Shown: positions 25,640-64,000, counted from the first letter of the stretch. The stretch is DNA of 64,000 nucleotides from Paecilomyces variotii (GCA_004022145.1 RCNU01000001.1), one strand, 5' to 3'. The notes: a model not told the origin generated them from the letters alone. Made by a program: numbers and translations.

Positions 25640-27537
25640 ATCGGCCCTTAGTCAGGACCGCGCGTAGTGCGGTCCCGCCACCTCAACGCGAACACCCAGC
25701 TCAACGAAAAATCGTCTAGATTTATTAAATTTCAACTTCCAATATTATTTCTAATCCACCACAATGCCTGAATTATATAGCGATATTGAAAAGAGGATCT
25801 AATATGCCCTCGCTATGTTATCTGACTAGTCAAAACCCAATATCGCGCAAGCTGCACGTTAGTTTGAGGTGCCTTATTTGTATCTTCATTCTTGCTATAA
25901 CGGTCGCGTTTTACGGTCTAATAGACTTCCAACAAATCGATGATTCTCTCCAGCTCAGGAGCTTGCTATTTGTGAGTATATTAAACGCCTAGATATAATT
26001 GGATTATCTATAATGCGAAAAATGGTGACTGGTTGCGCAAATGCAATCTTAGCTTAAGCTCATCAAGACCCCTTAATATCTTTGCCAAAAGTCGGCGAAT
26101 ACTAGCTTAAATGGTTCCTCTTGTGACATCCTGAGATGTATATATGAAGGCAATAAGCTCTTGATGCAGAAAGGAAAAAGGCTCATCGCCCGGATAATAT
26201 ACGAGACTGGTATTGTTGCTATGAATAAATGCTAGTCGGTCTTGATGTATAACCCGCGGATCTCTATAACATGGACGAGTCAGGCTTTTAAGTAGGAGAA
26301 GGGAAGGATAATCAAGTTATTACCTTAGAGCGTTAAAAAAAGCTATATATGGGTAATTGTACTGATTCCCAGAGAGTCACTATAGTTGAGGTAATAAGTG
26401 CTAATAGATTGGTGCTTTCTCCTTTTATTATCCTAGTCGGCAAGCAACTCTAAGCAGGATGGTTTGAGTTCCTAGATATTAATGCCGTAATTGGAGTATC
26501 TGATACTGGATATATAAATGACCATTTGGCCTACCAGTGGATACAATACTTTGATCGCCAGTTAGCTCGTCGTTAACAAAGAGTTTACTGTCTCCTCCTA
26601 TGCGACGGATATGGCTCTTATTTGATATATGAAGTCCTCAACTACTGTGAAAAGAAGAAGATTCTCCTATTTGTACTGGTGCCTCATATCAGCTATTTAA
26701 TCCAACCACTAGATGTTGGTGTTTTTCAGGCATTTAAGCACTACTATAACGAAGCCGTTGATTTTAATATGAGGATGGGCAACCCTAGGTTCGGCAAGCA
26801 CGAGTTCCTCCAAGCGCTTGGATTTATGCGAAGAAAGACCTTTAAATTATCTACTATTAAACACGCGTTTGAAAAGACTGGACTTTACCCATATAACCCA
26901 GATGTTATATTGGATAAGCTTCAAGAAACGGATAATAGACCTGCTACCCCTCGATCTATTAGTAGGTCATCTATCCTAGACAATATGCTAAAGACTGCCG
27001 AGCGATTTGAACAGTTTGAACAGCGCCTACTTCAGCTTGAAACTAATTCAGATCGCTTTACTAGCGGGCTTCAGAAACTGCTTAAAGGCAGTATTGCTTA
27101 GTCCTATATTGTGGACTAAATGTGACGGGAGCTTGAGGCTTCAGCTGGGGCATAACTAGCCCGTTAGGTCTGTGCTAGAGCATCTAAAAGGGTTTTACAA
27201 CGCGGAGGTGTTATGATGAAATGAGATGCAGATTATATTCAATTACGAACTTTTGAGGATAGTAATAAGGAGATATTACGGAAGTTGAAGCCCAAATGGA
27301 AGTGAGTAATGATTGAGCTCAGGCGGGTGACTAAGCCGCGGAAGGTGGCTTTAAAGACGTGGACTGACTGAAGGGGATCCTATTCTATATAGTACTGTAT
27401 TTAACTAGGCGATTAGTTGAATTTAATGTGGTTAAAAGCTTCAGAAAGTAATAGATTTTATATAGATTTATGTTGAGCTGGGTGTTCGTGTTGAGGTGGC
27501 GGGACCGCGCTATGCGCGGTCCTGACTAAGGGCCGAT
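25640..27537 (+). mobile_element. Fot1/pogo-family DNA transposon, full length (1898 bp), RIP-inactivated
   Basis: 66-bp TIRs (25640-25705 and 27472-27537, three transition mismatches), TA target duplications (25638-39, 27538-39) and an internal transposase relic. Confidence 0.95.
25764..27391 (+). pseudogene. DDE_1 (pogo/Fot1) transposase pseudogene
   Basis: Single frame from ATG 25764 with HTH region, YNMDESGF, LLLCDGYGSY and QPLDVGVF motifs, interrupted by more than a dozen TAA/TAG/TGA stops; 3' end approximate. Confidence 0.92.
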
Positions 27538-46747: not shown

Positions 46748-48003
46748 ATGGCATCACGGGACTCCCAGGATACAGCCGTCGATAGGGACAACAGCCCCCC
46801 TTCCATCTTGTGGGCCCATCAAATACGTCGTGAAAATACTCATCTAGCGGACAAGATGGATGACCTAGCCACCCTTGTATCCTCCACAGTTGAGGCGGCA
46901 GTTGCAGGAAGGAACAGCGTGGAACAACTTCATACAACCGCAAAAGGCCTGTTGGACGATAATAGATCGTTACGAGAGCGGCTTGCAACCCTGGAACGAG
47001 CGAACACTGAGATCAAATTACGAATGGAGAACTTGGAACGTGATAACGAACGGCTCCACGACGTACTTGATGTGATGGACCGAAAGTGGACCAATAGGCT
47101 CAAGGAAGAGATCACGGTGCTGCGGGATATGAAGAAAGATATTTTGACAGAGGCTGAGGAAATGCTGGAGCTGCAACACACGACAATAGATTTGCGGTTT
47201 GAGGCAGTCGATTTGCGCATTGGGGCAATTCTGGATATTGTCAAGGCTGGTATGTAGGTCAGATCGATGGTTTATTGTTATTCGTTCTCTTGCATAGTTT
47301 GACGGGAAGAATGTAACTATGTCTCTCGTGTATGGATCGGTGGTAGCAGTTATCACTCTTTTTCGTTTTGGCAATGATGAATGAACTTCGTTAATTGGAA
47401 CATATAGGCCGCGAGAAACGATGCCAGGCATTCCAGAACTCTCCCATCAGCTCCCCCACTTCATGTGTCACGCGGGAAAGGCCGCCACAACAGCTTGATG
47501 AAGATAATACCACTCTAGTTCCTGACTCCATGCCTTCGGCTCATTCTATTCTTACGGCAGCAGAGCAGGCCCCTGAGTATCCCGCGGAACCGTTCAAACA
47601 TCTACACGAAGATACCAAGCAAACATTATCGACCTTCCAGCAGAACAAGAGAAGCCTGGTAGACTACCTTTCTTCTGCAGAGGAAGCTCGCATGCAGCTT
47701 CCTCGACGCGAACAAGAGAGTATTGCAGTTGAAAAGTTCCTCGATGGCCTTGTGGATAAGAACCTGAAGGCGATTCTCGAGAAAAGAATAGACGATAAAG
47801 GATGGACATGGGAGATTCTCAGGGAATCCTGCTTGCAGATATCGGTTCAGCAGGAGCCCGAAAAGCGAAATGACATAGTGGTTGCCTTTGATAATAGACC
47901 GGCGGAGGCTAAACAAAAGATGAGAGACGGTAAAGGAGTCAAAGTCAAAAGGAGAAAACGAAGATGTATATCTCTTGTGCCAACGGACGAGAGTGGTCTG
48001 TAA
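46748..48003 (+). CDS. Hypothetical protein with N-terminal coiled coil and a C-terminal Gag-MHR-like segment
   Basis: Exon 1 PSILWAHQIRREN followed by heptad repeats; intron from about 47250; exon 2 ends in a basic NLS-like KVKRRKRR. Confidence 0.65.
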
Positions 48004-48149: not shown

Positions 48150-49115
48150 TCAAGTCTCCTTAAATTCATAGCGTCCTTCCCGCTCTTTCACCTCGACCTC
48201 GATTCTGCCCTCGGGAATCTCTTTCCCGTTGACCTCAATGGCGGCCCTCATGATGTCGCCAGGCTTCACTTGTCCAACCCCCTTGGGCGTTCCCGTCAGG
48301 ACCAAGTCTCCAGGCTCCAGGGTCATGACCCGCGAGATATCTGCCAATTGACGAGGAATACGGAACAGCATCAATCCAGTTGAATCCGACTGTCGCACCT
48401 CGTCGCCAACGCTCAAACGCAGCAACGCGTCATGTGGATCGGGAATCGCAGATTTAGGAATGCGCTCCGAGATAGGCAAGAAGGTATCGAAGCCCTTGGC
48501 GATCGACCAGGGGAGACCCTTCTTCTTAGCCTCATCCTGAACATTACGAGCCGTCATATCAATGGCAAGGACATAGCCTATAGCACACAAAAACAATCAG
48601 TCTCCTTGCAAAACAATATAGGGAACCAAAAAGAGCCCTCGCAATATGTTTAAAACCTAGGGAGGGGGGAATCGCACTATCGATAGCATCCAATGCGCCC
48701 TGATGATCCTCAGGATCCAGATCCCGAACTGTCTTTCCGATCACGAGACCCAGCTCGACTTCATAGTGTAGGCTGACGCCCTTGGGGCGCAGCACTGGTC
48801 CTTGACCCGGGATGAGAATTGACGATGGCGGCTTCAGGAAGAAGAAAGGTTGCTTGGGACGTGTGTTGTTCAGCTCGGTGACGTGGTCTCTGGTGGGTGG
48901 GTTCGGTGTTAGTGACTGGTTGCGACGGATAACAAGGAGAGGGAGAGAAGGTTCAATTGAGACTCTCGATCTGCGATCTAGAAGTATTGCCAACGGTTCC
49001 AGAGCTCCAATTGAGAGCAAAGGGTAAAGACAAAAAGAAAAAAGGATCGAACATACGCATAATTCCTCCCAATGCACATCACCTTCCTGCAATTGGCCCT
49101 GATAGAAGCTGCCAT
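48150..49115 (-). CDS. Fumarylacetoacetate-hydrolase family protein (FAHD1/Fmp41-like)
   Basis: CIGRNYADH, FFLKPPSS, LHYEVELG, IDMTARNVQ, AKGFDTF and GDLVLTGTPKGVG; two introns. Confidence 0.93.
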
Positions 49116-50145
49116 TTTGGCTATTATATCCTTCTCTGGACCTTCGCGCTCCTGTCGCGATTGCAGAAATATAAAATAAATGATATCAAGACTGCAGGAA
49201 GGATATGGTACAATATGAAGCAAGAGTGGGAAAGATAAGTTATAATACCAATGCTCCGTCGCAGAGTGACTTTCCCCTCCGCAGCTACGGAGATCGGCCG
49301 AGTAGCCGCAGCGGAGTCGCGACTTGACTCCCCGAATTATCCGTGCCGGGAGACCTCCCGAGTAGATAGGCCGGATAAATGTAAACTTACCAAGAGATGT
49401 GATTCTGTTGATGATTTTTCGTGGGGAATATTGCGGATTTGATTGGGCTATGTGGATATTCCAGCTTGCTTTTCTTTCGCTTTAAGTTATGGATGGGATT
49501 TCTCGTCTTATTGGTGTCTTGTGGAACAGATTTGTATATATTCTTTTCCGATACAGCAGCAACTGCTTTTCAGAGCCACCAAATTGATAACCCATAGATT
49601 AGCCCAGAATTTGATCACCTAACTGATCAGCTGGGACGATCCGAAATAGCAGGGAAGCCATCCTATAGATTGAACCTCCTGGTGGAGGTTGTTTGCTCGA
49701 CCCTAGATCCGGGGGGAGGTGGATCTCATATTTATATCCTAAGCGTACAAGGAATAGATCCATAACAATTCAGTAAGATCTGTCTTATGATCTAGGTGAT
49801 CAGGATGGTAAAAACAGTCAAGAAACTTGATGCAAACAGTTGATATGAGATGAGAGATCACATGCACGAATCTTTGTGCGCCGACATATCCCTCGGTAGT
49901 AAGTGCTATCGAAGGAATGCCTGCATTATCATTAACTGCTGTGAATCAATTGTGGAACGAAGGCCTTTGTACACTAGTCGCAGTCAAAATGATAGTCTTT
50001 CTTTGTGATACATTGTTTCCGTTTGATGGCCTAATTTATTTATTTCCATTTCAGCTGAATGGCATTGTTATTGAGCACATCATGTATATCGTTCCACAAG
50101 ACATCCCACGGCATCTAGATCTTAGCAAAAATATCCCTGAATTTT

Positions 50146-51321
50146 TCATGCCATCTGGCTCTTAAGGTTCATCTTCTCGTTCCTTCCCCAGAGCGCTAAC
50201 CAATCCTGGATTGAAGAAGCGACAGTTTTCAACTCGGTAAGACAAGCATCGCGTACATTATCGCTCTGGATAACCTGCAGAGCCATTCGGATATTCCGTG
50301 CAGAACCACATTCCAATGCCTTAGCCACCCACTCCCCTTTGGGTGCACTTAATGACAGTATAATCGGATATGAAAGCTCTTGGTTACGCAAATCTTCAGC
50401 AATGGCACCCTTGGCTTTTGCGTAATCTGAAGAGTAGACATTCTTGCAGTCATTTTGTAGCTGGGAATACCATCTGCGGAAATGCTAAGTCAGAAATATT
50501 CCCACATGTCATCGTCAAACGAGAGAAGACACATTCAACTCACGCGATGGCAGTCATTGTCTTATCGGCGGAATGGTCTTCAAGAACGAGCTGGCCAAGC
50601 AATCGAAACAAGCTACCCGTCTTCAAGGATGCCATTTCTCGATACACCTGTAGCCGTTCCTCCTTCTGCGACGGAAGACTGGAAAGACCGTCCCTCCGCC
50701 AAATCAGAGACATGTCTTGTCCGTGGAGAATGTCTTCTAGATTCTGCATGAGAAATGGCGCAAGGGTTGGGAACTGCTGAACTGTCATGTTGAGGATTTC
50801 AGTCACTCTGTAGTATGCCCGATTGGCGGTTTCGGAACGACCGTAGATTCGGTGGGCGGCTGGTTTGCCTTTTCGGTAGCTGCTATTGTCGGATATCTAT
50901 AGCATAATGATAGATGAAACGTTAGTTCATCGAGAATCTTGGGTATCAATGAGATCATAGAAGTTTTGTAGGATGAAAGGCCTCTCACATCGTCGACCAA
51001 CATTAGACACAGGTGAATTGCATCCATAATCTCCAGAACCCCGACATATTTATCCGGATCCTCTTTTTCCAAGTTTGGAGAAAGCTTCTTTACGAATGGT
51101 GCCCAGTGATGCTTTCCATATGCCTGGCGAATATAAGCGTAGGGACATTCTTCAGAAGTTATCCGTTGCGGTTTTCTTGGACCGATGATTAAAGATCTCT
51201 TGGAATTCAACCACATAGGTGGCATGCGATCCAGGACTGTGTGAATGCCGAAGATAATAATGGTACCAAACACAATACCCCAGGGTAACAGAGTACAGTT
51301 GGCATCACGAAGTTTATCCAT
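50146..51321 (-). CDS. paxC: Indole geranylgeranyltransferase, PaxC/AtmC-like (idtC)
   Basis: Three exons read [83 protein letters not shown] and [22 protein letters not shown], matching PaxC-family motifs; no stops or frameshifts seen. Confidence 0.92.
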
Positions 51322-51853
51322 CGTTGACTCATAATATGGTTAAGATGAATGTTTATGTTGAAGCATAGAATACTGTCAGTTCTCGAAGGCGTGTTCTTAT
51401 AGTACTTGCAGTATCTGAAACTTCGTCTATTTCATCTTACACAAAGACCATGCGATTAATTTTATTCTGTACGACGTGCAATATAGCCTTGAACAACGAA
51501 CGCTTCGATCCTAGGATTATGCAAGTTGCCGTTGGAAATTTCTTTTCATTAGTGAACAACAGCTTGTATCCCAAAAACTTCACTTTTCGTGATTGACTGT
51601 GCCTGTCATACCTTGGATCTGCATGGTGTAACACACAGCATATTACTCGAAACCTGGGTCTGTATTCGACCCTCGAGGCAAGCACACATAGGGACTGAAA
51701 TATCGTTAGAGCTATATTGTCGGAAGCTCCTCATTTTTGATAACCAAGCAGACTCCTCCCGTCTCGCTAATCAAACATCTACATTTTATTTTTGTTGGCA
51801 CCAATATATCCGCTAAAGAGCTTCAATAGCTCCATCGCCCATTTGACTCAATC

Positions 51854-52643
51854 ATGAACCGATTCGATGTCTCTCAAGCACCTCCTGAATACCGCGAAGT
51901 GGAATGGATCTCCAACATCTTCGTTGCAGGAATGGGCATAGGCTGGATCATCAATTACGTCGGCATGGTCTATCAATCTTTCCACGACAGAACATACTCA
52001 ATGGCAATTTTCCCTCTCTGTTGTAACATCGCCTGGGAGATAGTATACGGCTTAATCTACCCTTCTAACGATCTCATTGAGAAAGGTGCATGCGTCACAG
52101 GCCTGGCCATCAATTTCGCCATAATATATGCCGCGGTGCGGTTCGCACCTAACGAATGGACTCACTCCCCCTTGCTGATGCGCAATATGCCCTTGATCTT
52201 CTTCGTCGGGATTCTAGTATGCATTACTGGCCATCTTGCGTTGGCTGCTGAGATCGGGTATCCACTTGCCATCTCATGGGGTGCAGCATTATGCCAAATG
52301 ATGCTGAGCATCGGGGGCCTTTGTCAGTTACTCTGTCGGAATAGTTCGCGCGGCGCATCGTATACTCTTTGGTGAGTCTAGTCTAGGATATGGCTCCAGC
52401 CATGAACGGTAGCTAACTACCTAATTTATCGCTAGGCTCTCTCGCTTCATAGGTTCAGCATGCGTTGTTGTTTTCGGTTGGCTTCGATACTTTTACTGGT
52501 ACGAGGCGTTCTCTTGGCTTAATAGCCCACTGGTATGGTGGTGTTTGGCGGTTTTCTTTGCCGTTGACGGTTCTTATGGAGTATGTTTGTACTATATTAA
52601 GCGCGAGGAGTCGGTGCAGAAGATGAAGCAGAAACACATCTAG
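51854..52643 (+). CDS. paxB: Integral-membrane indole-diterpene cyclase, PaxB/AtmB-like (idtB)
   Basis: MNRFDVSQAPPEY, GMGIGWIINY, PLCCNIAWEIVY (conserved Glu), RGASYTLW/LSRFIGS, WLNSPL and VDGSYG (conserved Asp); single intron about 52372-52435. Confidence 0.95.
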
Positions 52644-53370
52644 TGTTATGTACCTTGCGGGATCTTATGTCCATATTTGGAGCAGTTTATTGCAATGTCT
52701 TACATTTATAATCTCATTGTCATAACGTTGGACTCCAACCATATACGTCCTCACCATTCATGCTTTCCCACCTTCGGTAAGCTCATCTAGCAGCGTTTAT
52801 CCACATAGATTAGGAATTTCCACATCAAGCAAGAACTTTGAGAAATGCCTGCACAGGTCTTATGATTCTGCAAGGTATACTTAGTTTCTGACAGGAGTTT
52901 GTACTATCGACCCCAACGACATTGTTAACCTTCTGCAGGACCTGGTTACACTGACCACCGAGAACTTGAAAGAAATAAGAACTGCTGAATGCTTCCACGT
53001 GCTCTATGCATATTCCATCTTATTTGTACCCTGTTAAATATACGTTGACGCCTATTCTTCAATACAACGGATCCTCTTGCAGCCCCTCTGCGGGCCGAAC
53101 CCTTGTAGTATAAGTTACATCTCACGAGCAATCAAAACTTGTATGGAGTACATTGCACTACGTCCAGGTACTAAAGGGTAGACCAGTGTCACCAACAAAA
53201 AGGATACCCTTGTGTGCATTTCACAGAAGACCCTGTCGTGACACCATATCACCAATGTGTAACTCCCGTAGCCCCATTAGATATAGGCAGTCCATACTAA
53301 AGACGACAAGACATATCAAGGTTACCTCTAGTGATATCCTCGAACCTCGCAGAACAAATTTATTTCAGCT

Positions 53371-54975
53371 ATGACAGAGTCCAACTTCCGCGTCATTATC
53401 GTGGGTTCCTCAATCGCCGGTCTAACACTAGCTCATTGTCTCCAACGAGCAAATATCAACCATGTCGTTCTTGAACAGCGAGACGAAATTGCTCCTCAGA
53501 TCGGTGCCTCAATAGGCATTCTGCCAAATGGCGCGCGGATCCTTGATCAATTGGGTCTATACAGACATGTTGAGGAACTGGTCGAGCCCCTGGAGGTAGC
53601 TCATATCATTTACCCGGATGGATTCAGTTTCAGTAGTAGATATCCCAAGATTCTTGCTGGAAGGTCTGTATCGTATTTCTCGTTTCTGAGCCTGAATGCT
53701 GATAAGGCTCATTGTGTAATGAAGGTTCGGATATCCAATTGCTTTTCTCGAACGGCAGAAGTTCCTTGAGATACTGTATCGTACGTATCCGGATAAATCT
53801 AACATTCTTCTGAACAAGAAAGTTGTCGATGTGCGCTTTCTTGATCAAGAAGCTTGTGTTGTTACGAACGATGGCTCTACATATACAGGCAACCTTGTGG
53901 TCGGGGCCGATGGAGTGCATAGTCGTATCCGTGCAGAGATGTGGCGTCGAGCAGACAAGAATCATCCTGGGTTGATTACGCATCGTGAGAAAACAGGTTT
54001 GTGTTCGAAACCTCCCTATCTTCTCATAGCTAAGACCAATAGCTGAGAATAATTTCTTGCTAGGTATGAAGACAGAATACGCATGTATATTCGGGATATC
54101 ATCACCTATCGACGGCTTAAAAGCTGGCGAGCAGGTCAACGCGTTCTATGACGGACTGACAATCATCACAATTCACGGGAAAGGCGGTCGTATCTTCTGG
54201 TTTATGATCAAGAAGATGGAGAAGAAATTCACATATCCGGATAGACCACGCTTCCCTCCTGAGGACGTTGAACGCGTTATTGCTACCATAGGTCAATATC
54301 GCATATGGGGAAACATCTACGTCAAGGATCTCTGGGACCGAAAGGAAGTCGTGTCAATGACTCCGTTGGAGGAGAATGTTTTCGAGACCTGGTACTTCGA
54401 TCGTATGGTATTACTCGGTGATAGCGTTCATAAGGTCTGTGTAATATATTCATTCTATACTTGCATTGTTGCTAAGTTTAATGAAACAGATGACTCCAAA
54501 TTTCGGCCAAGGTGCAAACTGCGCAATAGAAGACGCTGCATTACTTGCATCACTGCTAGAGAGCGTCATTCATAACAATGACCATGGGGCTAGTACTCCA
54601 AGAAAGTCATCAGATCTGGAGGATATTGATTCGTTGCTTCGATTATACCAGCAGCGACGATACAGTCGAGTAAAGTCTATCTACCGACAATCCAGGATGG
54701 TTACACGACTGCATGCACGGGATGGCCTTTTCAATATCATAGTAGGCCGGTATTACGCTCCCTACGCGGCCGACTTACCAGCGGATATAGCATCGAGAGC
54801 CATCGCGGACGCGGAAATGCTTCGTTACCTTCCAGTATGCCAACGCTCGGGGCCGGGATGGGCTGAATATTGCAGTGGGCAGCGCACGAATATCCGGTCT
54901 TGGTGGGCCATATTGATCATCATCGCGCTTATCATACTTTGGTCGCGAGGGCTGATCTTCCCTATCATCGTTTGA
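53371..54975 (+). CDS. paxM: FAD-dependent monooxygenase/epoxidase, PaxM/AtmM-like (idtM)
   Basis: [73 protein letters not shown] and [15 protein letters not shown]-terminal TM helix; three introns. Confidence 0.92.
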
Positions 54976-55364
54976 TCGGTTTCAGTCATGGATAGGGAAT
55001 GGCGGTTGATCCATTTCCCAAGTTAATGTTCAATTGGAGCTGCGTTTGTCAATGTTGTACTTTCTGCTATGCATTTTTCAAAGAGTCCAAGGGCTACTAG
55101 AAATATAAATCCAAGAAGACATGGCAATACCGCCTGAGTCTCATTGCTATCGAGATACCCGTCTACATTTCTCAGCAGACAGGAATATAAGTGCTCTAAG
55201 TAAATAGTCTTCCACTTTTCGTTGAATGCCATTTGTCGCCACGAACGCCAGCCATGATATTCGAAACCCAATCAAAATGTGCACTGAAAAACGATAGAAA
55301 CGTAGGTTCTTTCGGTGAGTTGGTATCAAAGGGGAAAAGTCGTCGGTGAGGACACGGTGATCGT

Positions 55365-56476
55365 TTAGACCAAAAGGACTGCGTTCACGGTACCGCTACG
55401 TAATGTTAGTTACTGAAAGGAAAGGAAAGCCATGGAATGGCCAAAACTTACTCCATATCGGGGTTGTTGGAAATCTGGGCCAGCTTTCCCCAAACGACCT
55501 TTCCACCTGCCGTCACGAGTCCCAGTTCGGAGACGTTGACCTCGATGATGGTACCCTTCGTCAAGACTCCGAGCTGGGTGTACATAGGGCTCTGCGGGTT
55601 CTTCTTGACGGAGATGATCGGCAGCTGAACCGTAACTCCCAGTTCCGGGTCTATCGTTTGTCATGCGTCAGCACAGGCTACTCGACTGATGGACTCTGGC
55701 GGGAAAACACTTACGGGTCACATTGGCCTTCTTGTATCGCAGACCCATAGGTCGGATGAAGCGCTCGTACTTGACGGGGCGACGAGTGAAGTCGTTACCA
55801 ACGAAAGTCGGCTTCGTGATCATACGCTTCCAGGACTTCTTGTGCGTCTTCTTTCCGGTAGTGACGACCTTGAACATCTCCTCCTCACTGATACCCTTGA
55901 CCTTAGGCAGGGGCACCGCAAACTTGGCAGCCTTCTCATTTCGCTTCTCCTTAATCGCACTCGACAAAGCCTTGGCATTGGTAGCCTGAGAACGGTCGAG
56001 CAGGTAGTTGGGCAGTGGCGTAGACGAAGGTTCCTCCGGAGCAGACGATTTGACGTTCTTCTCCTCCTGCGCACGGATGCGCTTCTTCATCTGGATCTTC
56101 TCTGCATGGCGCTTCTGCTGGTAGAGCTTAGCTCTCAATCCGCGGAGATTCTGGGCATCCTGAGATTGCTTGTGGGATTCACGGGCGATGCGCTTTCGGG
56201 TGCGTTCCTCGTGGTCGAGGCTTTTTGTTTAGTCAGACTTCGATTGCCATCTCTACATAATAACGCAAACCCTAGAATCATGAAAATATGGAACGTACCG
56301 CTTCCCGTGCTGCTTCTGCCAGCGTTCGATATACCTGTACCAATATCAGTCCTTTGCCCCATGTTTCAGGCGGAGAATATTGGGTTGACGAACTCGTTCT
56401 GAGGCTGTAATTTTCACGAAGAGATTCATTAGCACTACTATCCAGACTCATATAACAAGGCATTAAGACTTACCAT
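55365..56476 (-). CDS. nsa2: Ribosome biogenesis protein Nsa2
   Basis: Spliced [57 protein letters not shown]-terminal VNAVLLV*; five introns. Confidence 0.95.
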
Positions 56477-58207: not shown

Positions 58208-60097
58208 CTACCCACTCAGAATATCCTCAGCAATCTTCTCTGCAAGTCCGTAGATCAATGACTGGGGATGTCCCGGAGGCAAGAACGGAAAACTACTCGC
58301 ATCAACAACGCGCAAGTTCTGCACGCCATAAACACGAGCAGAGCTATCTAGCACTGCATTCGTGTCGTTCTTCGAACCCATTTTGCACGTGCACGATGCG
58401 TGGTAGACGGTCGTCATGCTTTGGCCGATGATGTCCTTGATCTGCGCATCGGTGGTGTAGTTCGAGCCAGGGAAGGCCTCTTCAGGATCAGCAATGCCGA
58501 GCTTGGCCAGCTCATCCCAGACTTGGCGCTGGCGCTTGAAGGACTGGACTGCGAGGTCGAGGTCTGCGGGATGAGAGAGCCATTTCGGGTCGATTATTGG
58601 GGGTGTGTTCATATCAGGACCGGCGAGTGTGACTGTTCCACGAGATAAAGGTGCAACAAGGGCAGTATTGACGGTGGCGTAGTTATGGCCGTCGTGAGGG
58701 TCAGCTGTTTGTTTATTGAGGTTGTATCCATTATACGCAGCTACCGGGAGCCATTCGATCTCTGGCCAGTCTGCAGGAAAGGTCGAGAGAGCTTTGATAG
58801 AGCCGTTGGACATGTATGAGCGGTAGGGCTGGGGAAGTTTCTCCCATCCGTAGTAACCCGGCCCAAAGATGGACAGCGGCCCAGTCGCATTATTGAGGTA
58901 GAGCTGGACACTTTGTGCAGCCAGGGTTTTATTGTTGATGCTCGCAGATGCCGTGTTCACACCAACACGGTGGGCAATTCCAAAGATTGGATGATCTTGC
59001 ATATTCTGGCCAACGCCCGGGAGGTCACTGATACAGGAGATACCGAATTCAGAAAGATTGTTGCAGGGTCCAATACCAGAAACCATCAGCAATTGAGGAG
59101 ACTGGAAAGCTCCTGCTGAAACGATGACTTCCTTGCGCGCACTGAGCGTGAAGTTCACAGACGGAGTACCGAAAGTACCGGCAGTCATGACATGCACACC
59201 TGTGGCCGTTTTGTTAGAGTCGAATAAGATCTTTTGCGCCATGGTATTCTTATACACATTGATGTTGGCTCCGGCATTGAGCGCTTCTTGTAAGAAGCTG
59301 GACTCTGAAGTTGACCGGTGTGCATTCTCTGGCTTGATAGTCAGCGTTGCATAGGCGGACCCGAGTAGCTTCCCACTGTTGAAGCCATCGATTTGCTTCA
59401 TGCCGACGTTGATGAATGCCTTTCGTGCCCATGTGCCAAACGGATCCACAAAGTTACTAAATGAAACCTCGAGTGGACCACCAGACGAGCTGAAGGCATC
59501 CGGATCTTGAGTGTTTGAGGAATTATAATACAGGGCCTTGTTTGGACCCGTGTAATGGCAGGATTTCTTATAATATGGAAGCAGGTTATCGAAGGTGTAG
59601 CTCTGGTCGTCCACCTCATCCGCCCATCTCTGCAAGCTATCCACCGTAGCACGCTGATAGAGCATATAGTTTCTGGCGGATGAACCACCCAGTGTCTTTC
59701 CGCGCGCATAATGAACAACTCTATTTGCAGAGTACTTCTGCGGTACAGTGTTGAATCCCCAGTCAATGAGCGGTTGGAAATTGTTAGGATCCGATCCAGT
59801 AAAATAAGTTGCCGAGCCCGGGATAACAGTCAAATTGCTATTATCAAGCTCATAGAAACCGCCTGCCTCGACAACAGCGACACTGGCTGAGCCATTCATG
59901 GCCAACCGCGAGGCTATGGTCAACCCAGCATTACCTCCTCCAACGACGACATAGTCAAAGGTTGCGTTCGTGCCGGGGAGCCCAAAGGAGCTGCCCAGAA
60001 GGGGTCCTAGTTGGCCATAGTCGAGTAGATTGAGGTTCAACTGCGCTGATACCACCGTCGCCGCAGACAGTAGACATAATTGTGAGATTCCCCTCAT
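58208..60097 (-). CDS. Secreted GMC (AA3) oxidoreductase
   Basis: Signal peptide; DYVVVGGGNAG, GKTLGGSSARN, SAGAFQSPQLLMVSGIG, VYHASCTCKMG and LRVVDAS..PGHPQ; single exon, 629 aa. Confidence 0.95.
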   Translation of the reverse strand: MRGISQLCLLSAATVVSAQLNLNLLDYGQLGPLLGSSFGLPGTNATFDYVVVGGGNAGLTIASRLAMNGSASVAVVEAGGFYELDNSNLTVIPGSATYFTGSDPNNFQPLIDWGFNTVPQKYSANRVVHYARGKTLGGSSARNYMLYQRATVDSLQRWADEVDDQSYTFDNLLPYYKKSCHYTGPNKALYYNSSNTQDPDAFSSSGGPLEVSFSNFVDPFGTWARKAFINVGMKQIDGFNSGKLLGSAYATLTIKPENAHRSTSESSFLQEALNAGANINVYKNTMAQKILFDSNKTATGVHVMTAGTFGTPSVNFTLSARKEVIVSAGAFQSPQLLMVSGIGPCNNLSEFGISCISDLPGVGQNMQDHPIFGIAHRVGVNTASASINNKTLAAQSVQLYLNNATGPLSIFGPGYYGWEKLPQPYRSYMSNGSIKALSTFPADWPEIEWLPVAAYNGYNLNKQTADPHDGHNYATVNTALVAPLSRGTVTLAGPDMNTPPIIDPKWLSHPADLDLAVQSFKRQRQVWDELAKLGIADPEEAFPGSNYTTDAQIKDIIGQSMTTVYHASCTCKMGSKNDTNAVLDSSARVYGVQNLRVVDASSFPFLPPGHPQSLIYGLAEKIAEDILSG

Positions 60098-61739
60098 AGT
60101 GTTCGCTGCACCGCGTCTAGGACCCAGACCACGGCTTCGACGAAATCACCACAATGCTTGGGCGTTTCGAAATTGTTCCCACGCAAGAGTCACCGCGGGG
60201 AAGACGCCAGGGATCACAAGCTTGAAAAAACATCGTGCCCAGACGTGGGGAGCTGCAACCTGGAATATATAAAAGAGACTTTGGAATGGACCTCGAGCTG
60301 CGGAGAGATCTGCTATGCCAAATTCCACTTCCGGCTCAAGAGAGCACCGCCCCTCGCGGGAGATATTGTGCCGACGACGCGACGAACCATATCAATCAAC
60401 CAGTCAACTTTCCTCTCATAGGAAGTTTATCTGAACTCCTTCCAGCCCGGTAAAAAGTTCCTTAGAACTGAACACAACAAGGGCGGGTGCGGTACTTGCA
60501 GTCTGTGCAGCATATCCACATGGTCGAAGGTTTAGCCTATGTATGTACCATCCTTGAACCACGCGGTCTGGCGGAAAGATCCGACGGGGACCGTGTCACA
60601 GGCATGGATTTAATATCCCGTCAAAGATCTAATCAATTGGCCCCAAGTGGGCGGTTCACTCTCGATAGGGGTCCAGGAACACTCTGGAACGATTCCATTT
60701 TGTCGCCGATCGATCCGCACTCCCTAGATGGGTAAGTACTAAGGAAAGATTGCTTGCCTTAGAGAGTTTCCCTACAGACCTCTTGGCAAGAATATCAATG
60801 ACGAGGTTCTTTTTTCCACCTCGTCATTGATATTGTTGCCAAGATCAGCCAGCCCCAATTACTCCATCTGCATGGGTATGTCTATCGATGGCGCCGCGCC
60901 GAGTTTCAGTCCGAGGCTGAGAACAAGTTCAGTATCACATATCCAATCAGGGAGGAATGGGACGGAAACCCCCATGTCGAAGCTCCAAGGAAAAGCAAAA
61001 CACTGGGCCAGTGGCAGACTTGGATCGTTGGAACTAGAAAGATTTATCAGAAACGGTGGGTCGATCGGGATGATGCCGATCCTCGATCTTTCGGTGGAGA
61101 AAAGAAACCCAGCCATCGGCGCTTCCGAACGACCAGGGGTGGGAAAGGGCAGAAGAATATAGAAAATAAAGATTTATGCGGGAACTCCTATACGTACTTA
61201 GAAAGGTGGGCAATATGAGTATGTGGTAAGCGGGTTAAGGCTTCAGCATTACGTATTCAATCAGAAATCCAGCAATAGTTCATAACTAGTAAGTACTATG
61301 TAGATGTTATCTACAAGCGAGCAAGTTATTCACATCTGGCCGTATTCAGCAAATTCGTTATCTCTATAGTGTGGCAGGTACTTTCTTATTTGTTGTCAGG
61401 GCAAGCTGATCATATCCAAAGACATACTCCGTACTACATAGTTATTATTATGGTTATACTACGGCGATCGTCCAGGTAGGTCGAGGTGGGTTTTGAGAGG
61501 CCTAGGGACCCCTGGAACTATTATTATTTCTGAAACTTCTATCTTTACAAAATTTGGATTCGTGTACACCCAGCGATTCACTGAAACTATACAAAACCAT
61601 GTCCTATAATTCCTGCGCCAAAACCCCATCCAGTGTACCAGCTCCCTAGTCCCAAGCTATGTTGCCATGCAGATAGCCGATAAAGTCCGTACTGTACATC
61701 ATTTCACGTATATACATCGTTATTATTGTAAGTAGTTAT

Positions 61740-63035
61740 TCATATAGAACTCGTTGTTTGATGGATCTCCCTTTCCAGTCGGATTCCTGAGGGGACAGGC
61801 TCGACCGGTCGTCCAGTGCCATCCTGTCCCACACTAACCTTTGATTTCATACGGCCCTTGGGCCCCGAGTAGATACCGCTGTGCTCGTCCAGGGAGTCAT
61901 CGTCTCCAAGTCCAATAAATCCGGCGGAACTAGTAGTTTGGGTCGATCCCAGGTTAGATAGGTGGATGTTAGTTGACCGTATCCGAGATTGAGAGCCAGT
62001 AGAACTTTCTGTCGCGGTAGTTTTGGAGGTTTCATAGATTCGTCGCACCAGAGGTCTTAACGTTGGAAGACAAGTACAGACGATTCCAACGGACTGTTCG
62101 ATAGAGGACCACATTGCTGTATTAATTGTGGTGTAAGTAGGATCTTTTGGATTGGATTTATTGAATGCAATGATGCGTAGGATAGAGACGACACAGACAC
62201 TGTTGGTTTTTGTTAACGATCATCATGGAATTGAAGCCAGAAAAATAGATCCACTTACAATCCACCGAGAAGAAAGATACCACTAATGACGAACTTTTGC
62301 CTCCAGCTCGCTCTGATCTGCCATGTCATTGAAAGGGGCAGGCAGAGGACCAAAAAGTCCAGCAGCATATTGGTGAACCCATTCCAACGGAAGAAGTTGA
62401 CTTCGTCTATACATTTGCCAGGCTGATGTTTGTTCCAGAAATATGATACCGGCTGGCAGCCCGCAATACAGACGATCATGCAGGCTATGAAATAGCTGAC
62501 AATAATCCCCCCTGATACCCAGAGAGCGTAGCAGAATCCCCTGATAATCCCAAAAATTCGATAATATAGAAGCAACAGAGAGGCTTTCGTAGTGACCGCA
62601 TTGGTGAAATAGGTGACTTGAACTGCAAGAAAGCTCTGCATAGCTACATCAGTTACGTGGAAAAGCGGCTATTTCACGTCACTCATGAAAGAGATGCTTT
62701 ACCTTCTGGAATGACTGAACTTTGTCGGCGGCAAGGAATGCGGCATGGCGACCATAACCATAATGCAACACCTGAACCCATCGTATCGCTGCCATCGCCC
62801 AGTTGACAGCCTGCCAACGGTGTCAGGGATTGATATTGAGGCCTGTCTACTTGAAGGGTCACCATACCAGGGAGGCTAAAATCGTCCAGTCGTCCCACCA
62901 GAGTCCAGCGCTCGCAACGTAACGTGCAGTGAACCGCAAAACCACCGCAAACGTGGCCGGCACCACTGTGGTAATTGTTCCGACCCAGATGCGCCAACTG
63001 ATATCGACATCTTGCTGCAGACCATTTGCAGACAT
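61740..63035 (-). CDS. PTH11-like (SAT4/rhodopsin-domain) integral membrane protein
   Basis: VVLRFTAR..GLWWDDW, TKASLLLLYYRIF, CQPVSYFWNK..GKC, DFLVLCLPL and WSSIEQSVGIVCTCLPTLRP; three introns. Confidence 0.88.
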
Positions 63036-64000
63036 GCTCGGGCAGACTGCTACTGCCTCATCGTTGTCGCAAGGGGTGTCCTTTTTCTTTTTCAAGGAGC
63101 GGCATCGCGCGGGGGTACCTTTACATACATATACAACGAACCCTTTGGCTGGGCCATAACTCTACTTCGGCGGATGAGACCAGCCCTGTGATCCGGCTGG
63201 CCCATCCTCCATAATTCTATGTTTGTCCACCGGCTGAAGTTTCCTCTGGCGATCCTGGCCGGAAACGGCGATTATGGGTGGTCCTTGTCTGGAGACGCGG
63301 GATACCAATGCCTGACAGGCTGAGAGTAAGCTCTGCGATCCCTCGAGGAGTTCACGCCTTAAATGTGGGTCATCGCTTTGCGATCTTTGACTGCTCGAAC
63401 CCAATTGTGTGGGAACTTCATCCAGTGGAACCGAGATCTGCTTTTGTCTGGGGGCCGGAATCGACTCGATGCAACGAAACGCCACAATGTCATGAGCTTT
63501 CGAACCTTTCATTTGGGCAAAAGCAAATGATTAGTGACGGCCTATAGAGACGATGAGGTTAGACTGTCAGGCCAATTTTCCAATTGATTGAAACAAAGCG
63601 AGCTGGAAGTTACCTAAACATGAATTCGCTTCTTTTGGAATATTCCACAACGACCCTACCCTGATTGCGAATGTAGGTCAAGAGGATTATACGGTAAAAT
63701 CGGCATTCCCAAGTGGCAAAACATCTGCGAAGACTTAAGGAAAATCGTATATAGTATACGAGAGAAGGTGATGTTGCAGCCCTCAGCCTCGTGCTGGTAG
63801 CATGCATTAGAAGCCGTTGCTAGGTAATCGGGTCCAAATTCCACATTAAATAGGAGACATGTGCCGATGGTATGGATGAAAATCAAGATAATCCTGTCTA
63901 ACAAATTCACGGCTGTGGCACCACTTGAGCACTCGAGCACGTGCAGAGACAGAGAATAATTTATTCTCCGGGCGAAAGCCGCCATCTGCACTGCTATATG

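Follow-up and report, generated by a model that had tools for sequence, protein, structure and literature searches.

What would Paecilomyces variotii make with an indole-diterpene prenyltransferase, epoxidase, and cyclase whose genes stand by themselves? The question is raised by idtC, idtB, and idtM, which lie side by side in the stretch of DNA analyzed here (the window: 64,000 nucleotides, one strand, from GCA_004022145.1 RCNU01000001.1). The description we favor, with a confidence that is about even, is that of a transcribed cassette encoding the core steps toward an indole-diterpene-type metabolite, with no GGPP synthase, adjacent IdtA, or tailoring genes of its own.

Gene models and transcripts

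The three genes are adjacent, intact, and interrupted by introns (Table 1). A sequence-only reading of the window had placed them at 50146 to 54975, and these coordinates are exact: the first is the final base of the idtC stop codon, on the minus strand, and the second that of the idtM stop codon. Each model contains a single stop, at its end, and the six introns of the cassette all run GT..AG and measure 55 to 92 nt. The divergence of idtC and idtB across about 530 bp was also correctly seen, the distance from start codon to start codon being 532 bp; this spacer would act as the promoter for both genes.

Table 1. Coordinates of the cassette, its transcripts, and its neighbors in the window
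Feature	Position	Strand	Details
Left boundary, fumarylacetoacetate-hydrolase-family gene	48153..49185	-	PF01557, 4.1e-34 and 3.6e-11 on two ORFs; outside cassette
idtC-idtB-idtM cassette	50146-54975		Span 4.83 kb; three genes
idtC	50146..51321	-	Exons 51321-50989, 50896-50544, 50473-50146; introns 92 and 70 nt; 337 aa; PaxC-type
idtC transcript contig	50035..51713	-	X1 record 1; 1524 nt; no mismatch; both introns spliced out
Divergent spacer idtC/idtB	51322..51853		Presumed shared promoter
idtB	51854..52643	+	Exons 51854-52371, 52436-52643; one 64-nt intron; 241 aa; PaxB-type integral-membrane terpene cyclase
idtB transcript contig	51691..52790	+	X1 record 2; 1036 nt; 0 mismatches; intron skipped
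idtM	53371..54975	+	Exons 53371-53663, 53725-53996, 54064-54434, 54490-54975; introns 61, 67, and 55 nt; 473 aa; PaxM-type
idtM transcript contig	53319..55100 and on	+	X1 record 3; 2704 nt; 0 mismatches; three introns skipped
Right boundary, S8e-family ribosome-biogenesis gene	55451..56228	-	PF01201, 2.5e-21 and 1.5e-06; outside cassette
Fung_rhodopsin seven-helix membrane-protein gene	61743-63161		6.8 kb from cassette

Are the genes used? Spliced RNA comes from one culture run and one food-fermentation metatranscriptome. In X1, which represents one condition, idtC, idtB, and idtM are all transcribed, and all six introns are removed at the predicted borders without a mismatch. A silent locus, which the earlier reading had said would speak against it, is not what the RNA shows. 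The X4 contigs also lack idtC intron 2 and idtM introns 1 and 2, and one of them stops at 50016 with a T run after it, which hints at a poly(A) site. The contigs of idtC (to 51713) and idtB (from 51691) meet within the divergent spacer. The idtM contig continues for a further 1105 nt past 55100 and probably merges with the convergent S8e-like gene, so its depth is uninformative on the level of idtM.

Family membership of the three proteins

Family matches, identities, and trees agree in assigning the proteins to the PaxC, PaxB, and PaxM types, as first proposed from the sequence. Kinship with Pyr4-type polyketide-meroterpenoid systems would have pointed elsewhere; the proteins sit with the indole-diterpene enzymes instead. 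The Pfam matches of single exons all lie far above chance: 2.7e-11 for PF00348 (polyprenyl_synt) on idtC exon 2, 1.8e-07 for PF01494 (FAD_binding_3) on idtM exon 1, and 7.8e-74 and 4e-17 for PF25129 (Pyr4-TMTC) on the idtB exons, which together cover profile positions 1-170 and 171-226 of 227. Compared with annotated P. variotii proteins, the spliced IdtC model is identical to P0069 (337/337), while IdtB matches P0001 at 233 of 241 residues and IdtM matches P0093 at 450 of 473. Orthologs in "P. variotii No. 5" and P. lecythidis are 74-77% identical, and the cassette has therefore been kept within the genus.

How does IdtC differ from a GGPP synthase? Its best solved relatives are GGPP synthases (3e-20), and its first Asp-rich motif is DDISD, at residue 110. 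The second, at residue 236, reads NDCKN where a solved GGPP synthase has DDYAN. All 17 of 17 IdtC sequences carry NDCKN or NDSKN, so that NDxKN may be a mark of the family, on our own observation of these 17 sequences rather than by any cited rule. IdtC retains 108 of the 109 columns invariant among 16 homologues and has an N-terminal hydrophobic anchor (residues 11-29). It is 74% identical to an A. tanneri protein and 60% identical (204/338) to AceC of A. alliaceus, which presumably stems from a paspalinine-ester cluster, of which several are listed in that species, as opposed to roughly 30-38% for GGPP-synthase-like representatives. In a tree whose comparison set is without a named PaxG or PaxC sequence, and whose outgroup consists of second polyprenyl-synthase-like halves (set apart by a branch of 5 on either side of the root), it falls among 19 other IdtC rows with 100/100 support. 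IdtC thus groups with IdtC proteins, apart from the chain-elongating GGPP synthases. Its nearest relatives, like those of IdtM, come from Aspergillus section Nigri, A. steynii, and A. rambellii.

IdtM carries the class A flavoprotein monooxygenase motifs GSSIAG (12), GADG (158), GDS (307), and GQGAN (318), retains all 13 of the 13 columns invariant among 38 homologues, and ends in a hydrophobic anchor (residues 445-463). Its tree unites the four Paecilomyces sequences in one clade with 100% support, and the clade in which IdtM sits also contains NodM, an IdtM of A. striatus, and cluster-linked IdtM homologues of Aspergillus. We know of no sequence marker that separates IdtMs performing one epoxidation from those performing two. 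NodM and EstM1 perform one; PaxM, EstM2, and DesM perform two (PMC9913125).

Over its full length, IdtB shares 158 of 243 aligned columns with PtmB and 139 of 243 with PaxB (57-65%); for exon 1, the identities are 69% to PtmB, 66% to AtmB, 63% to NodB, and 60% to PaxB. The most distant match is 37% identical, in a comparison set without a true Pyr4 outgroup. All 28 columns invariant among 30 homologues are retained, and 7 of 74 columns in the Paecilomyces IdtB depart from the 90% consensus. In the tree, it stands alone on a branch of 0.43, with an unresolved backbone. Exon 1 is also 68% and 65% identical to two cyclases of A. striatus, either of which may be EstB1. Cyclase phylogeny is, in any case, no predictor of the product, as EstB1 and DesB do not cluster apart from PaxB-like enzymes (PMC9913125).

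Neighboring genes and the favored product

What else lies nearby? The flanking genes look like housekeeping genes, the one on the right being what we take to be NSA2-like from its S8e family. The gaps to them, 960 bp and 475 bp, are too small for an IdtA/IdtS gene of about 350 aa. The domain scan covered 61 of the 105 window ORFs of at least 110 aa, along with all 134 ORFs of 60-109 aa starting at or beyond 38000; the 44 long ORFs outside it mostly overlap larger frames. Among the scanned ORFs, PF00348 marks a single locus in the search for a GGPP synthase (idtG), and none carries a P450, aromatic prenyltransferase, or transcription-factor domain. When 136 proteins, including the second polyprenyl-synthase-like halves of P0076, P0091, and P0092, were compared with the window by tblastn, none of the 346 matches fell outside 50000-55100. 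PaxA gave no domain match in 2013 (PMC3760044, available in part).

As the sequence-only reading had noticed, PKS, NRPS, and class I terpene synthase domains are also lacking in the scanned ORFs, including the shorter ones at 38-64 kb. A PKS and a UbiA-type prenyltransferase beside the cyclase would mark a Pyr4-type polyketide meroterpenoid cluster; their absence from the scanned ORFs and the PaxC-type prenyltransferase rule against such a cluster. The canonical core cluster consists of G, C, M, and B plus A/S. Here, C, M, and B are present and adjacent, and idtG was not found in the window scan, so the same reading's word "self-contained" has to be given up.

How might the pathway run? IdtC, with its polyprenyl-synthase fold and N-terminal anchor, is predicted to transfer a geranylgeranyl group onto indole-3-glycerol phosphate, yielding 3-geranylgeranylindole. 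The GGPP would be supplied by a synthase encoded elsewhere in the genome. This supply is an assumption and a point against the scheme, since the scan of the window yielded no such gene and P. paxilli cannot do without its cluster GGPP synthase gene, paxG, whose deletion abolishes all indole-diterpene synthesis (PMC3760044, available in part). IdtM, an FAD enzyme anchored at its C terminus, would then epoxidize the C10-C11 double bond, and IdtB, a multi-pass membrane cyclase, would protonate the epoxide and release a cyclization cascade, with all three enzymes probably located together at the membrane.

Emindole SB is the most likely product, or else another simple scaffold without a tetrahydropyran ring. 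The enzyme now credited with closing the ring of paspaline is IdtA/IdtS and not IdtB (PMC12038925). With no idtA or idtS beside the cassette, a simple, apolar product without this ring is to be expected; with no gene for a PaxA-type tetrahydropyran cyclase adjoining it, a paspaline-type product is not. The scaffold first suggested, of emindole SB or paspaline type, thus keeps its first half and loses its second. Against this, in the literature searched, we found no report of an indole diterpene from P. variotii, for which Samson 2009 gives only viriditoxin and unidentified compounds (PMC2789542).

Could the cassette nevertheless lead to paspaline or its epoxide precursor? IdtM would then epoxidize twice, like PaxM, and the ring would close spontaneously or by way of an unlinked PaxA-like cyclase. 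Most characterized IdtMs do perform both epoxidations (PMC9913125), and 3',4'-epoxyemindole SB turns slowly into paspaline without PaxA (PMC12038925). The seven-helix Fung_rhodopsin gene, 6.8 kb away, would be a candidate for such a cyclase, as would the ORFs of the window that match no family. However, idtA, which adjoins no part of the cassette, is present in every known cluster with a ring-bearing product (PMC12038925), and the core-only relative EST1 carries a mono-epoxidase, EstM1 (PMC9913125). A group of apolar indole-terpenes, "OLK," has the UV spectrum of paspaline and is made by related Byssochlamys species, but it is not given for P. variotii (PMC2789542). Nor, by our reasoning, would such a spectrum separate scaffolds, because it is that of the indole chromophore. 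On balance, we find paspaline unlikely, and are similarly doubtful of another indole-diterpene skeleton, whether emindole SA/DA-type (Markovnikov), aflavinine/anominine-type, or new, a choice that the carbocation steering of IdtB would decide. In the published comparison, the emindole SA cluster comes out on top, though its score of 44.1 owes as much to gene content as to the cyclase. Trees mix cyclases of alternative outcome with PaxB-like ones (PMC9913125), and the separate branch and consensus departures of the Paecilomyces IdtB would fit such a case. So would the section Nigri kinship of IdtC and IdtM, since species of that section form aflavinine-type sclerotial indoloterpenes (see also the listing of PMC3988082). 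Against this, IdtB shows no more than 49-52% identity to its section Nigri counterparts, and its top identities are to the emindole SB makers PtmB, AtmB, NodB, and PaxB.

Does the pathway need GGPP at all? If IdtC used FPP from primary metabolism, that would explain why no GGPP synthase is needed, and IdtM and IdtB would yield a prelecanindole-like indole sesquiterpene. This possibility was absent from the sequence-only reading. In the known case, sesE[PT1], sesM, and sesB suffice for prelecanindole, and the cluster is without a prenyl-diphosphate synthase gene (PMC10595974). SesB, SesM, and SesE[PT1] have 241, 473, and 341 aa (PMC10595974, SI Table S8) versus 241, 473, and 337 aa here, a likeness that is weak evidence because many IdtBs have 241-243 aa. 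The known prenyltransferases of these pathways are, however, two-domain PT1-PT2 proteins of about 760 aa (PMC10595974), whereas IdtC is a single 337-aa domain with its stop codon at 50146-50148 and a transcript contig of 1524 nt. The published comparison ranked an indole-diterpene cluster first with sespendole in its reference set, and at least 10 other clusters have a PaxC-type transferase and no GGPP synthase, so the missing synthase is no specific signal. To our knowledge, an indole-sesquiterpene pathway here would be the first in the Eurotiomycetes; Cordana, Tolypocladium, and Epichloe are Sordariomycetes. It is from these three genera that the clusters of the only three reported fungal biosynthesis cases come (PMC10595974). 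The use of FPP therefore strikes us as quite improbable. We give very little credence to a transcribed relic without a product, disabled by a substitution that inactivates an enzyme or by the want of a GGPP supply of its own. The GGPP synthase not found in the window, the essential role of paxG in P. paxilli (PMC3760044, available in part), and the lack of a reported product from P. variotii in the literature searched would fit a relic. The three intact frames argue against it, as do the invariant columns kept (28/28, 108/109, and 13/13), the orthologs retained in at least two Paecilomyces lineages, and the correct splicing in both the culture run and the food-fermentation metatranscriptome.

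The core cassette for a simple indole diterpene, then, is the reading we prefer. There is a smaller chance, one we hold tentatively, that its scaffold is one for which no gene has yet been named, be it an FPP-derived indole sesquiterpene or a new indole-diterpene skeleton. In either case, the cassette, which these fungi express in food fermentations, could be the genetic source of the "OLK"-type indole-terpenes recorded in Byssochlamys/Paecilomyces, apolar compounds of unsolved structure.

Comparison with known clusters

Genome mining has already put the locus on record. Row 746 on the Pyr4 sheet of Supplementary file 11 of Tang and Matsuda 2024 (PMC11109268) is a Paecilomyces variotii BGC1 with TC (Pyr4) and PT (PaxC), given as similar to the emindole SA BGC, with antiSMASH detection "Y." This is almost certainly the very locus described here, since the table has no other Pyr4-type cluster from this species, the core given is TC (Pyr4) and PT (PaxC), and IdtC is identical to the NCBI P. 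variotii protein. The concern that automated callers could miss the cassette was therefore misplaced. BGC1 was called as 10.7 kb and 6 genes, compared to our three, and would thus also include the two housekeeping genes and a GMC oxidoreductase (coordinates estimated); it is a table entry, without checked gene models, expression, or product. In a comparison with about 700 known clusters, EST1 (emindole SA) was its top match, at a score of 44.1, and the sespendole cluster, in the same reference set, was not the best match (PMC11109268).

The cassette is a new, uncharacterized case of a common cluster make-up. Among the 30 emindole-SA-like rows listed, 12 have PT (PaxC), and 11 of the 12, including P. 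variotii, are without "PPPS" (GGPP synthase). A. burnettii BGC4, A. novofumigatus BGC6, A. turcosus BGC4, A. ibericus BGC3, and others share the core of TC (Pyr4) and PT (PaxC). The other PaxC-type clusters without a GGPP synthase differ in genus, some have 8-22 genes and may carry tailoring enzymes, and no characterized member was seen among the rows listed (PMC11109268). With the locus already tabulated and its make-up common, its interest is confined to its product.

How does the cassette compare to characterized systems? SES/SPD (Tolypocladium album, Cordana terrestris) likewise combines a prenyltransferase, an FAD epoxidase, and a PaxB-type cyclase with no prenyl-diphosphate synthase gene, a likeness of gene content and size only, but its prenyltransferase has two domains, PT1-PT2, and two P450s follow (PMC10595974). 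The PAX core of Penicillium paxilli shares the three enzyme families and, presumably, the order C, M, B, with PaxB, PaxM, and PaxC at 243, 477, and 317 aa (PMC3760044, available in part) versus 241, 473, and 337 aa here. It adds paxG (essential), paxA (ring closure), the P450 genes paxP and paxQ, paxD, and paxO (PMC12038925; PMC3760044, available in part), which have no detectable counterpart in the scanned parts of the window. EST1 of Aspergillus striatus is made up of four genes, one of which, estG1, encodes a GGPP synthase, whereas no such gene was found in the window. It is otherwise core-only like the cassette, with no P450s and no idtA, and, with EstM1 as a mono-epoxidase, it makes a simple scaffold without a tetrahydropyran ring (PMC9913125).

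Gene structure, surroundings, and transcription

The window holds fungal DNA whose spliceosomal introns are short. Gene models were drawn from the stop-to-stop frames at 50.1-55.0 kb together with inspection of the sequence, and the exons were spliced by coordinates. The models for idtC, idtB, and idtM each have one stop codon, which is terminal, and all six of their introns are of the GT...AG type and 55 to 92 nt long. The sequence-only reading had described three apparently intact genes reaching from 50146 to 54975, with about 530 bp between the divergent C and B genes. Both outer stop codons fall exactly on those two positions, and the spacer measures 532 bp. Pfam searches with single exons returned PF00348 in idtC and PF01494 in idtM, and the two idtB exons matched PF25129, the Pyr4-like transmembrane terpene cyclase family, at 7.8e-74 and 4e-17.

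Features of the cassette and its surroundings
Feature	Position	Strand	Remarks
DDE_1 transposase fragment	26577-27098	+	7.2e-09
Retrotransposon-gag-like ORF	47395-48000	+	8.4e-05, under the Pfam cut-off; 2 kb left of the cassette
Fumarylacetoacetate-hydrolase-family gene	48153-49185		left neighbor
idtC	51321 to 50146	minus	3 exons, 337 aa
idtB	51854 to 52643	plus	2 exons, 241 aa
idtM	53371 to 54975	plus	4 exons, 473 aa
S8e-family gene	55451-56228		right neighbor
Mitochondrial L21 gene	56885-57757		right side
GMC-family FAD oxidoreductase	58211-60145	-	3.2 kb past idtM, behind two housekeeping genes
Fung_rhodopsin (PF20684) seven-helix membrane-protein gene	61743-63161	-	6.8 kb from idtM; look-up of one exon yielded just a general family name

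The cassette consists of three genes amid housekeeping-like genes. The Pfam scan covered 61 of the 105 window ORFs of at least 110 aa (the remaining 44 mostly overlap larger frames) and all 134 short ORFs of 60 to 109 aa starting at or beyond 38000. None of the scanned ORFs matched a Pfam domain of a second polyprenyl synthase, a P450, an aromatic prenyltransferase, or a fungal transcription factor, nor, as had been proposed, of a PKS, NRPS, or terpene synthase. When 136 retrieved proteins were compared with the window by tblastn, none of the 346 matches lay outside 50000-55100. GC content is 0.42 to 0.47 in the cassette and its spacers (49000-55500) versus 0.49 to 0.58 in the flanking housekeeping genes, a difference too mild to argue for transfer. 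As for flanking repeats that might signal insertion, there are no direct repeat families and merely two weak, short inverted pairs. The gag-like ORF and the DDE_1 fragment look like degraded mobile-element remains.

Are these genes transcribed? Four sequencing runs, X1 to X4, were aligned to the locus; the DNA-like runs X9 to X14 were not used. X1 is labeled with the species given for the genome-like runs and has no mismatches to the locus. Its idtC contig (50035-51713) lacks both introns, its idtB contig (51691-52790) lacks the intron, and its idtM contig, starting at 53319, lacks all three, with every splice joint at the predicted border. Because the predicted introns have been removed, X1 must really be RNA. 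Lack of transcription, which the sequence-only reading had named as grounds for giving it up, is therefore not what was found; spliced transcripts of all three genes are present in X1. The idtM contig also extends 1,105 nt past the aligned stretch, probably through merging with the convergent neighbor gene, and this extension makes contig depths unfit for ranking the genes. The cassette is transcribed, as seen in one condition, and co-regulation lies beyond that data. Intact, spliced, and family-matched, the three-gene cassette is confirmed as an observation.

X2 to X8, labeled as food or food-fermentation metatranscriptomes, cover the locus in part, with 90-99% identity, and food fermentations seem to contain active strains of related Paecilomyces. 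Among these runs, splicing is seen in X4 only, a food-fermentation metatranscriptome (90-99% identity) whose contigs skip intron 2 of idtC and the first two introns of idtM. X4 also has a loose end of 12 letters that equals the last bases of exon 1 in idtC, and Ts in a row beside 50016 suggest a poly(A) site. X2 and X3 were rejected as evidence of transcription, since their contigs, about 90-99% identical, still contain the introns and could be related-strain DNA or pre-mRNA.

Two further details come from the contigs. The idtC and idtB RNA contigs of X1 overlap by 23 nt (51691-51713) inside the 532-bp spacer, so that read cover is unbroken across the presumed divergent promoter. This would give idtC a 5' leader of about 390 nt; as the contigs are unstranded, they do not show direction. 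In addition, the stop codon of idtC is altered at its second base (50147) in the X2 and X4 contigs of related strains, a change that would turn TGA into a serine codon. With the stop lost, the frame would run for about 8 further codons in the window's own sequence context.

The three predicted proteins

The IdtC model is identical over 337/337 residues to an NCBI protein of P. variotii (P0069), and IdtB and IdtM match P. variotii proteins from other strains at 233/241 (P0001) and 450/473 (P0093) residues. "P. variotii No. 5" and P. lecythidis carry M and B orthologues at 74-77% identity, and the four Paecilomyces sequences in the IdtM tree form a single clade with 100% support.

IdtC falls inside the IdtC family in its tree, far from the second polyprenyl-synthase-like halves that served as the outgroup. 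Its identity is 74% with a protein of A. tanneri and 60% with AceC of A. alliaceus. The DDISD motif is kept, and the second motif, NDCKN, is of a type common to all 17 aligned IdtC sequences, where a solved GGPP synthase has DDYAN. An N-terminal hydrophobic segment at residues 11-29 (51235-51291) recurs in 21 of 23 homologues (P0070-P0092), and in IdtC-type transferases it is mostly followed by a conserved DR-x-PP-x-WP-x-SKK stretch. A search of representative proteins with IdtC gave 906 matches at E <= 0.001 and 19 at E <= 1e-30; these are unnamed, and indole-sesquiterpene and indole-diterpene transferases are indistinguishable among them. None of the best 150 of the 906 is about 760 aa long and matches at its N terminus. 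In Aspergillus section Flavi, P0076, P0080, P0081, P0085, P0091, and P0092 are annotated with an IdtC-like domain fused to a second half. These proteins are 552-588 aa long, and the second, polyprenyl-synthase-like half is 25-32% identical to IdtC. They could be atmC-atmG gene-model fusions or true two-domain proteins like LtmE, SpdE, and SesE.

For IdtB exon 1, identity is 69% with PtmB, 66% with AtmB, 63% with NodB, and 60% with PaxB; at full length, 158/243 aligned columns are identical with PtmB and 139/243 with PaxB. All 28 columns invariant among 30 homologues are kept. In the cyclase tree (n=33), IdtB and its P. variotii allele sit on a 0.43 branch of an unresolved backbone, adjoining no particular characterized enzyme.

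In IdtM, the usual FAD motifs are present and none of the 13 invariant columns is changed. Its dinucleotide-binding motif (residues 12-17; 53404-53421) reads GSSIAG here and GSS(I/V)AG in the other three Paecilomyces, versus GGS at the same place in 34 of 35 non-Paecilomyces homologues. From the alignment, this G-to-S change looks genus-specific and at the variable position of the motif; as 4/4 Paecilomyces orthologues share it, the idea that it is a defect of IdtM was dismissed. In a hydropathy scan, IdtB showed three stretches that are strongly hydrophobic, and IdtM showed one near its C terminus. Together with the segment in IdtC, these suggest that the three enzymes may be located together on a membrane.

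The catalog record and the product literature

Has this cluster been described before? An extract of the cluster table of Tang and Matsuda 2024 (PMC11109268) lists a "Paecilomyces variotii BGC1" at NW_021167140:974271-984975, with 6 genes and a core of TC (Pyr4) and PT (PaxC). It gives the emindole SA cluster FBGC00648 as the similar BGC (score, 44.1) and "Y" for antiSMASH detection. Since BGC1 is the sole Pyr4-type cluster listed there for P. variotii, it is taken to be the cassette locus, which would thus be known as a catalog entry; by estimated coordinates, the GMC oxidoreductase probably lies within that 6-gene call. The worry that automated cluster callers could miss the cassette does not apply to the reference genome, in which antiSMASH detected BGC1. 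In the same extract (PMC11109268), 133 cells of the Pyr4 sheet name PaxC and 99 name PPPS, the table's label for GGPP synthase. Among 30 of its 43 emindole-SA-like rows, 12 have PT (PaxC), and 11 of those 12 are without a GGPP synthase. The gene make-up of the cassette is ordinary. It is an uncharacterized addition to a numerous, known cluster family, and for the wider field, it is one further member among well over a hundred cataloged clusters.

P. variotii and related molds resist heat and spoil food, and many of the indole diterpenes have tremorgenic or other biological activity. The titles and abstract openings searched, mostly those of reviews and reports of compounds, held no functional study of Paecilomyces idt genes, and the literature searched assigned no indole terpenoid to P. 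variotii. The excerpted part of Samson et al. 2009 (PMC2789542) reports "OLK" from B. fulva, B. nivea, and B. lagunculariae; the name stands for "apolar indole-terpene compounds" of unsolved structure that show a paspaline UV spectrum. In the same excerpt, B. spectabilis (P. variotii) is credited with viriditoxin and unidentified compounds only. It is speculation to tie OLK to orthologues of the cassette genes. As these genes are intact, conserved in the genus, and spliced in culture RNA and one fermentation metatranscriptome, identifying their product would add a small missing piece to what is known of a food fungus's extrolites.

Scaffold, prenyl donor, and known clusters

How might the three enzymes act together? 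IdtC would join a prenyl diphosphate to indole-3-glycerol phosphate, IdtM would epoxidize the prenyl chain, and IdtB would cyclize the epoxidized chain. This order, C to M to B, is that of the established indole-diterpene pathway (PMC9913125, PMC12038925, and an extract of PMC3760044). The tetrahydropyran ring of paspaline is closed not by IdtB but by IdtA in Eurotiomycetes or IdtS in Sordariomycetes, and a gene for IdtA or IdtS is present in all clusters known for ring-bearing products (PMC12038925). Neither gene adjoins the cassette, and the expectation of a paspaline-type product is not upheld. The EST1 cluster of A. striatus, comprising G, C, M, and B, yields emindole SA by means of a single-acting epoxidase (PMC9913125). 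By analogy with EST1, and with no adjoining IdtA or IdtS gene, a simple scaffold without the tetrahydropyran ring would be the favored product. Emindole SB is a first guess, because the nearest characterized cyclases make it, but a soft one, as cyclase phylogeny does not predict the skeleton according to the authors of PMC9913125.

What about the prenyl donor? Deletion of paxG in P. paxilli abolishes all indole-diterpene synthesis, according to an extract of PMC3760044, and scans of the window found no GGPP synthase gene, so the cassette is not self-contained. The donor may come from a GGPP synthase encoded elsewhere, or FPP may be used instead. Of the sequence-only interpretation, the PaxC-, PaxB-, and PaxM-type enzymes stand; the self-contained, paspaline-type, and caller-evading parts do not. 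Identifying the product would provide a clean natural test of whether a PaxC/PaxM/PaxB trio that includes no GGPP synthase draws on primary GGPP or FPP, as well as of what such a trio makes without the IdtA cyclase.

Use of FPP by IdtC would make the cassette an indole-sesquiterpene pathway, a rival to be taken seriously: sesE[PT1] or spdE[PT1] plus M and B suffice for the indole sesquiterpene prelecanindole in Tolypocladium album and Cordana terrestris (PMC10595974). However, the published cluster comparison matched an indole-diterpene cluster better, and many PaxC-type clusters lack a GGPP synthase, both in the extract of PMC11109268. A Pyr4-type polyketide meroterpenoid cluster was rejected, there being no PKS or UbiA domain among the scanned ORFs and the transferase being PaxC-type.

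The indole-sesquiterpene clusters SES and SPD thus resemble the cassette in gene set, a PT, M, and B core being sufficient, but their transferases are two-domain proteins, whereas IdtC has a single domain, which counts against the rival. For the favored indole-diterpene scaffold, the nearest parallel is EST1, which includes G where the cassette is without a GGPP synthase, but which is, like the cassette, a core-only cluster.
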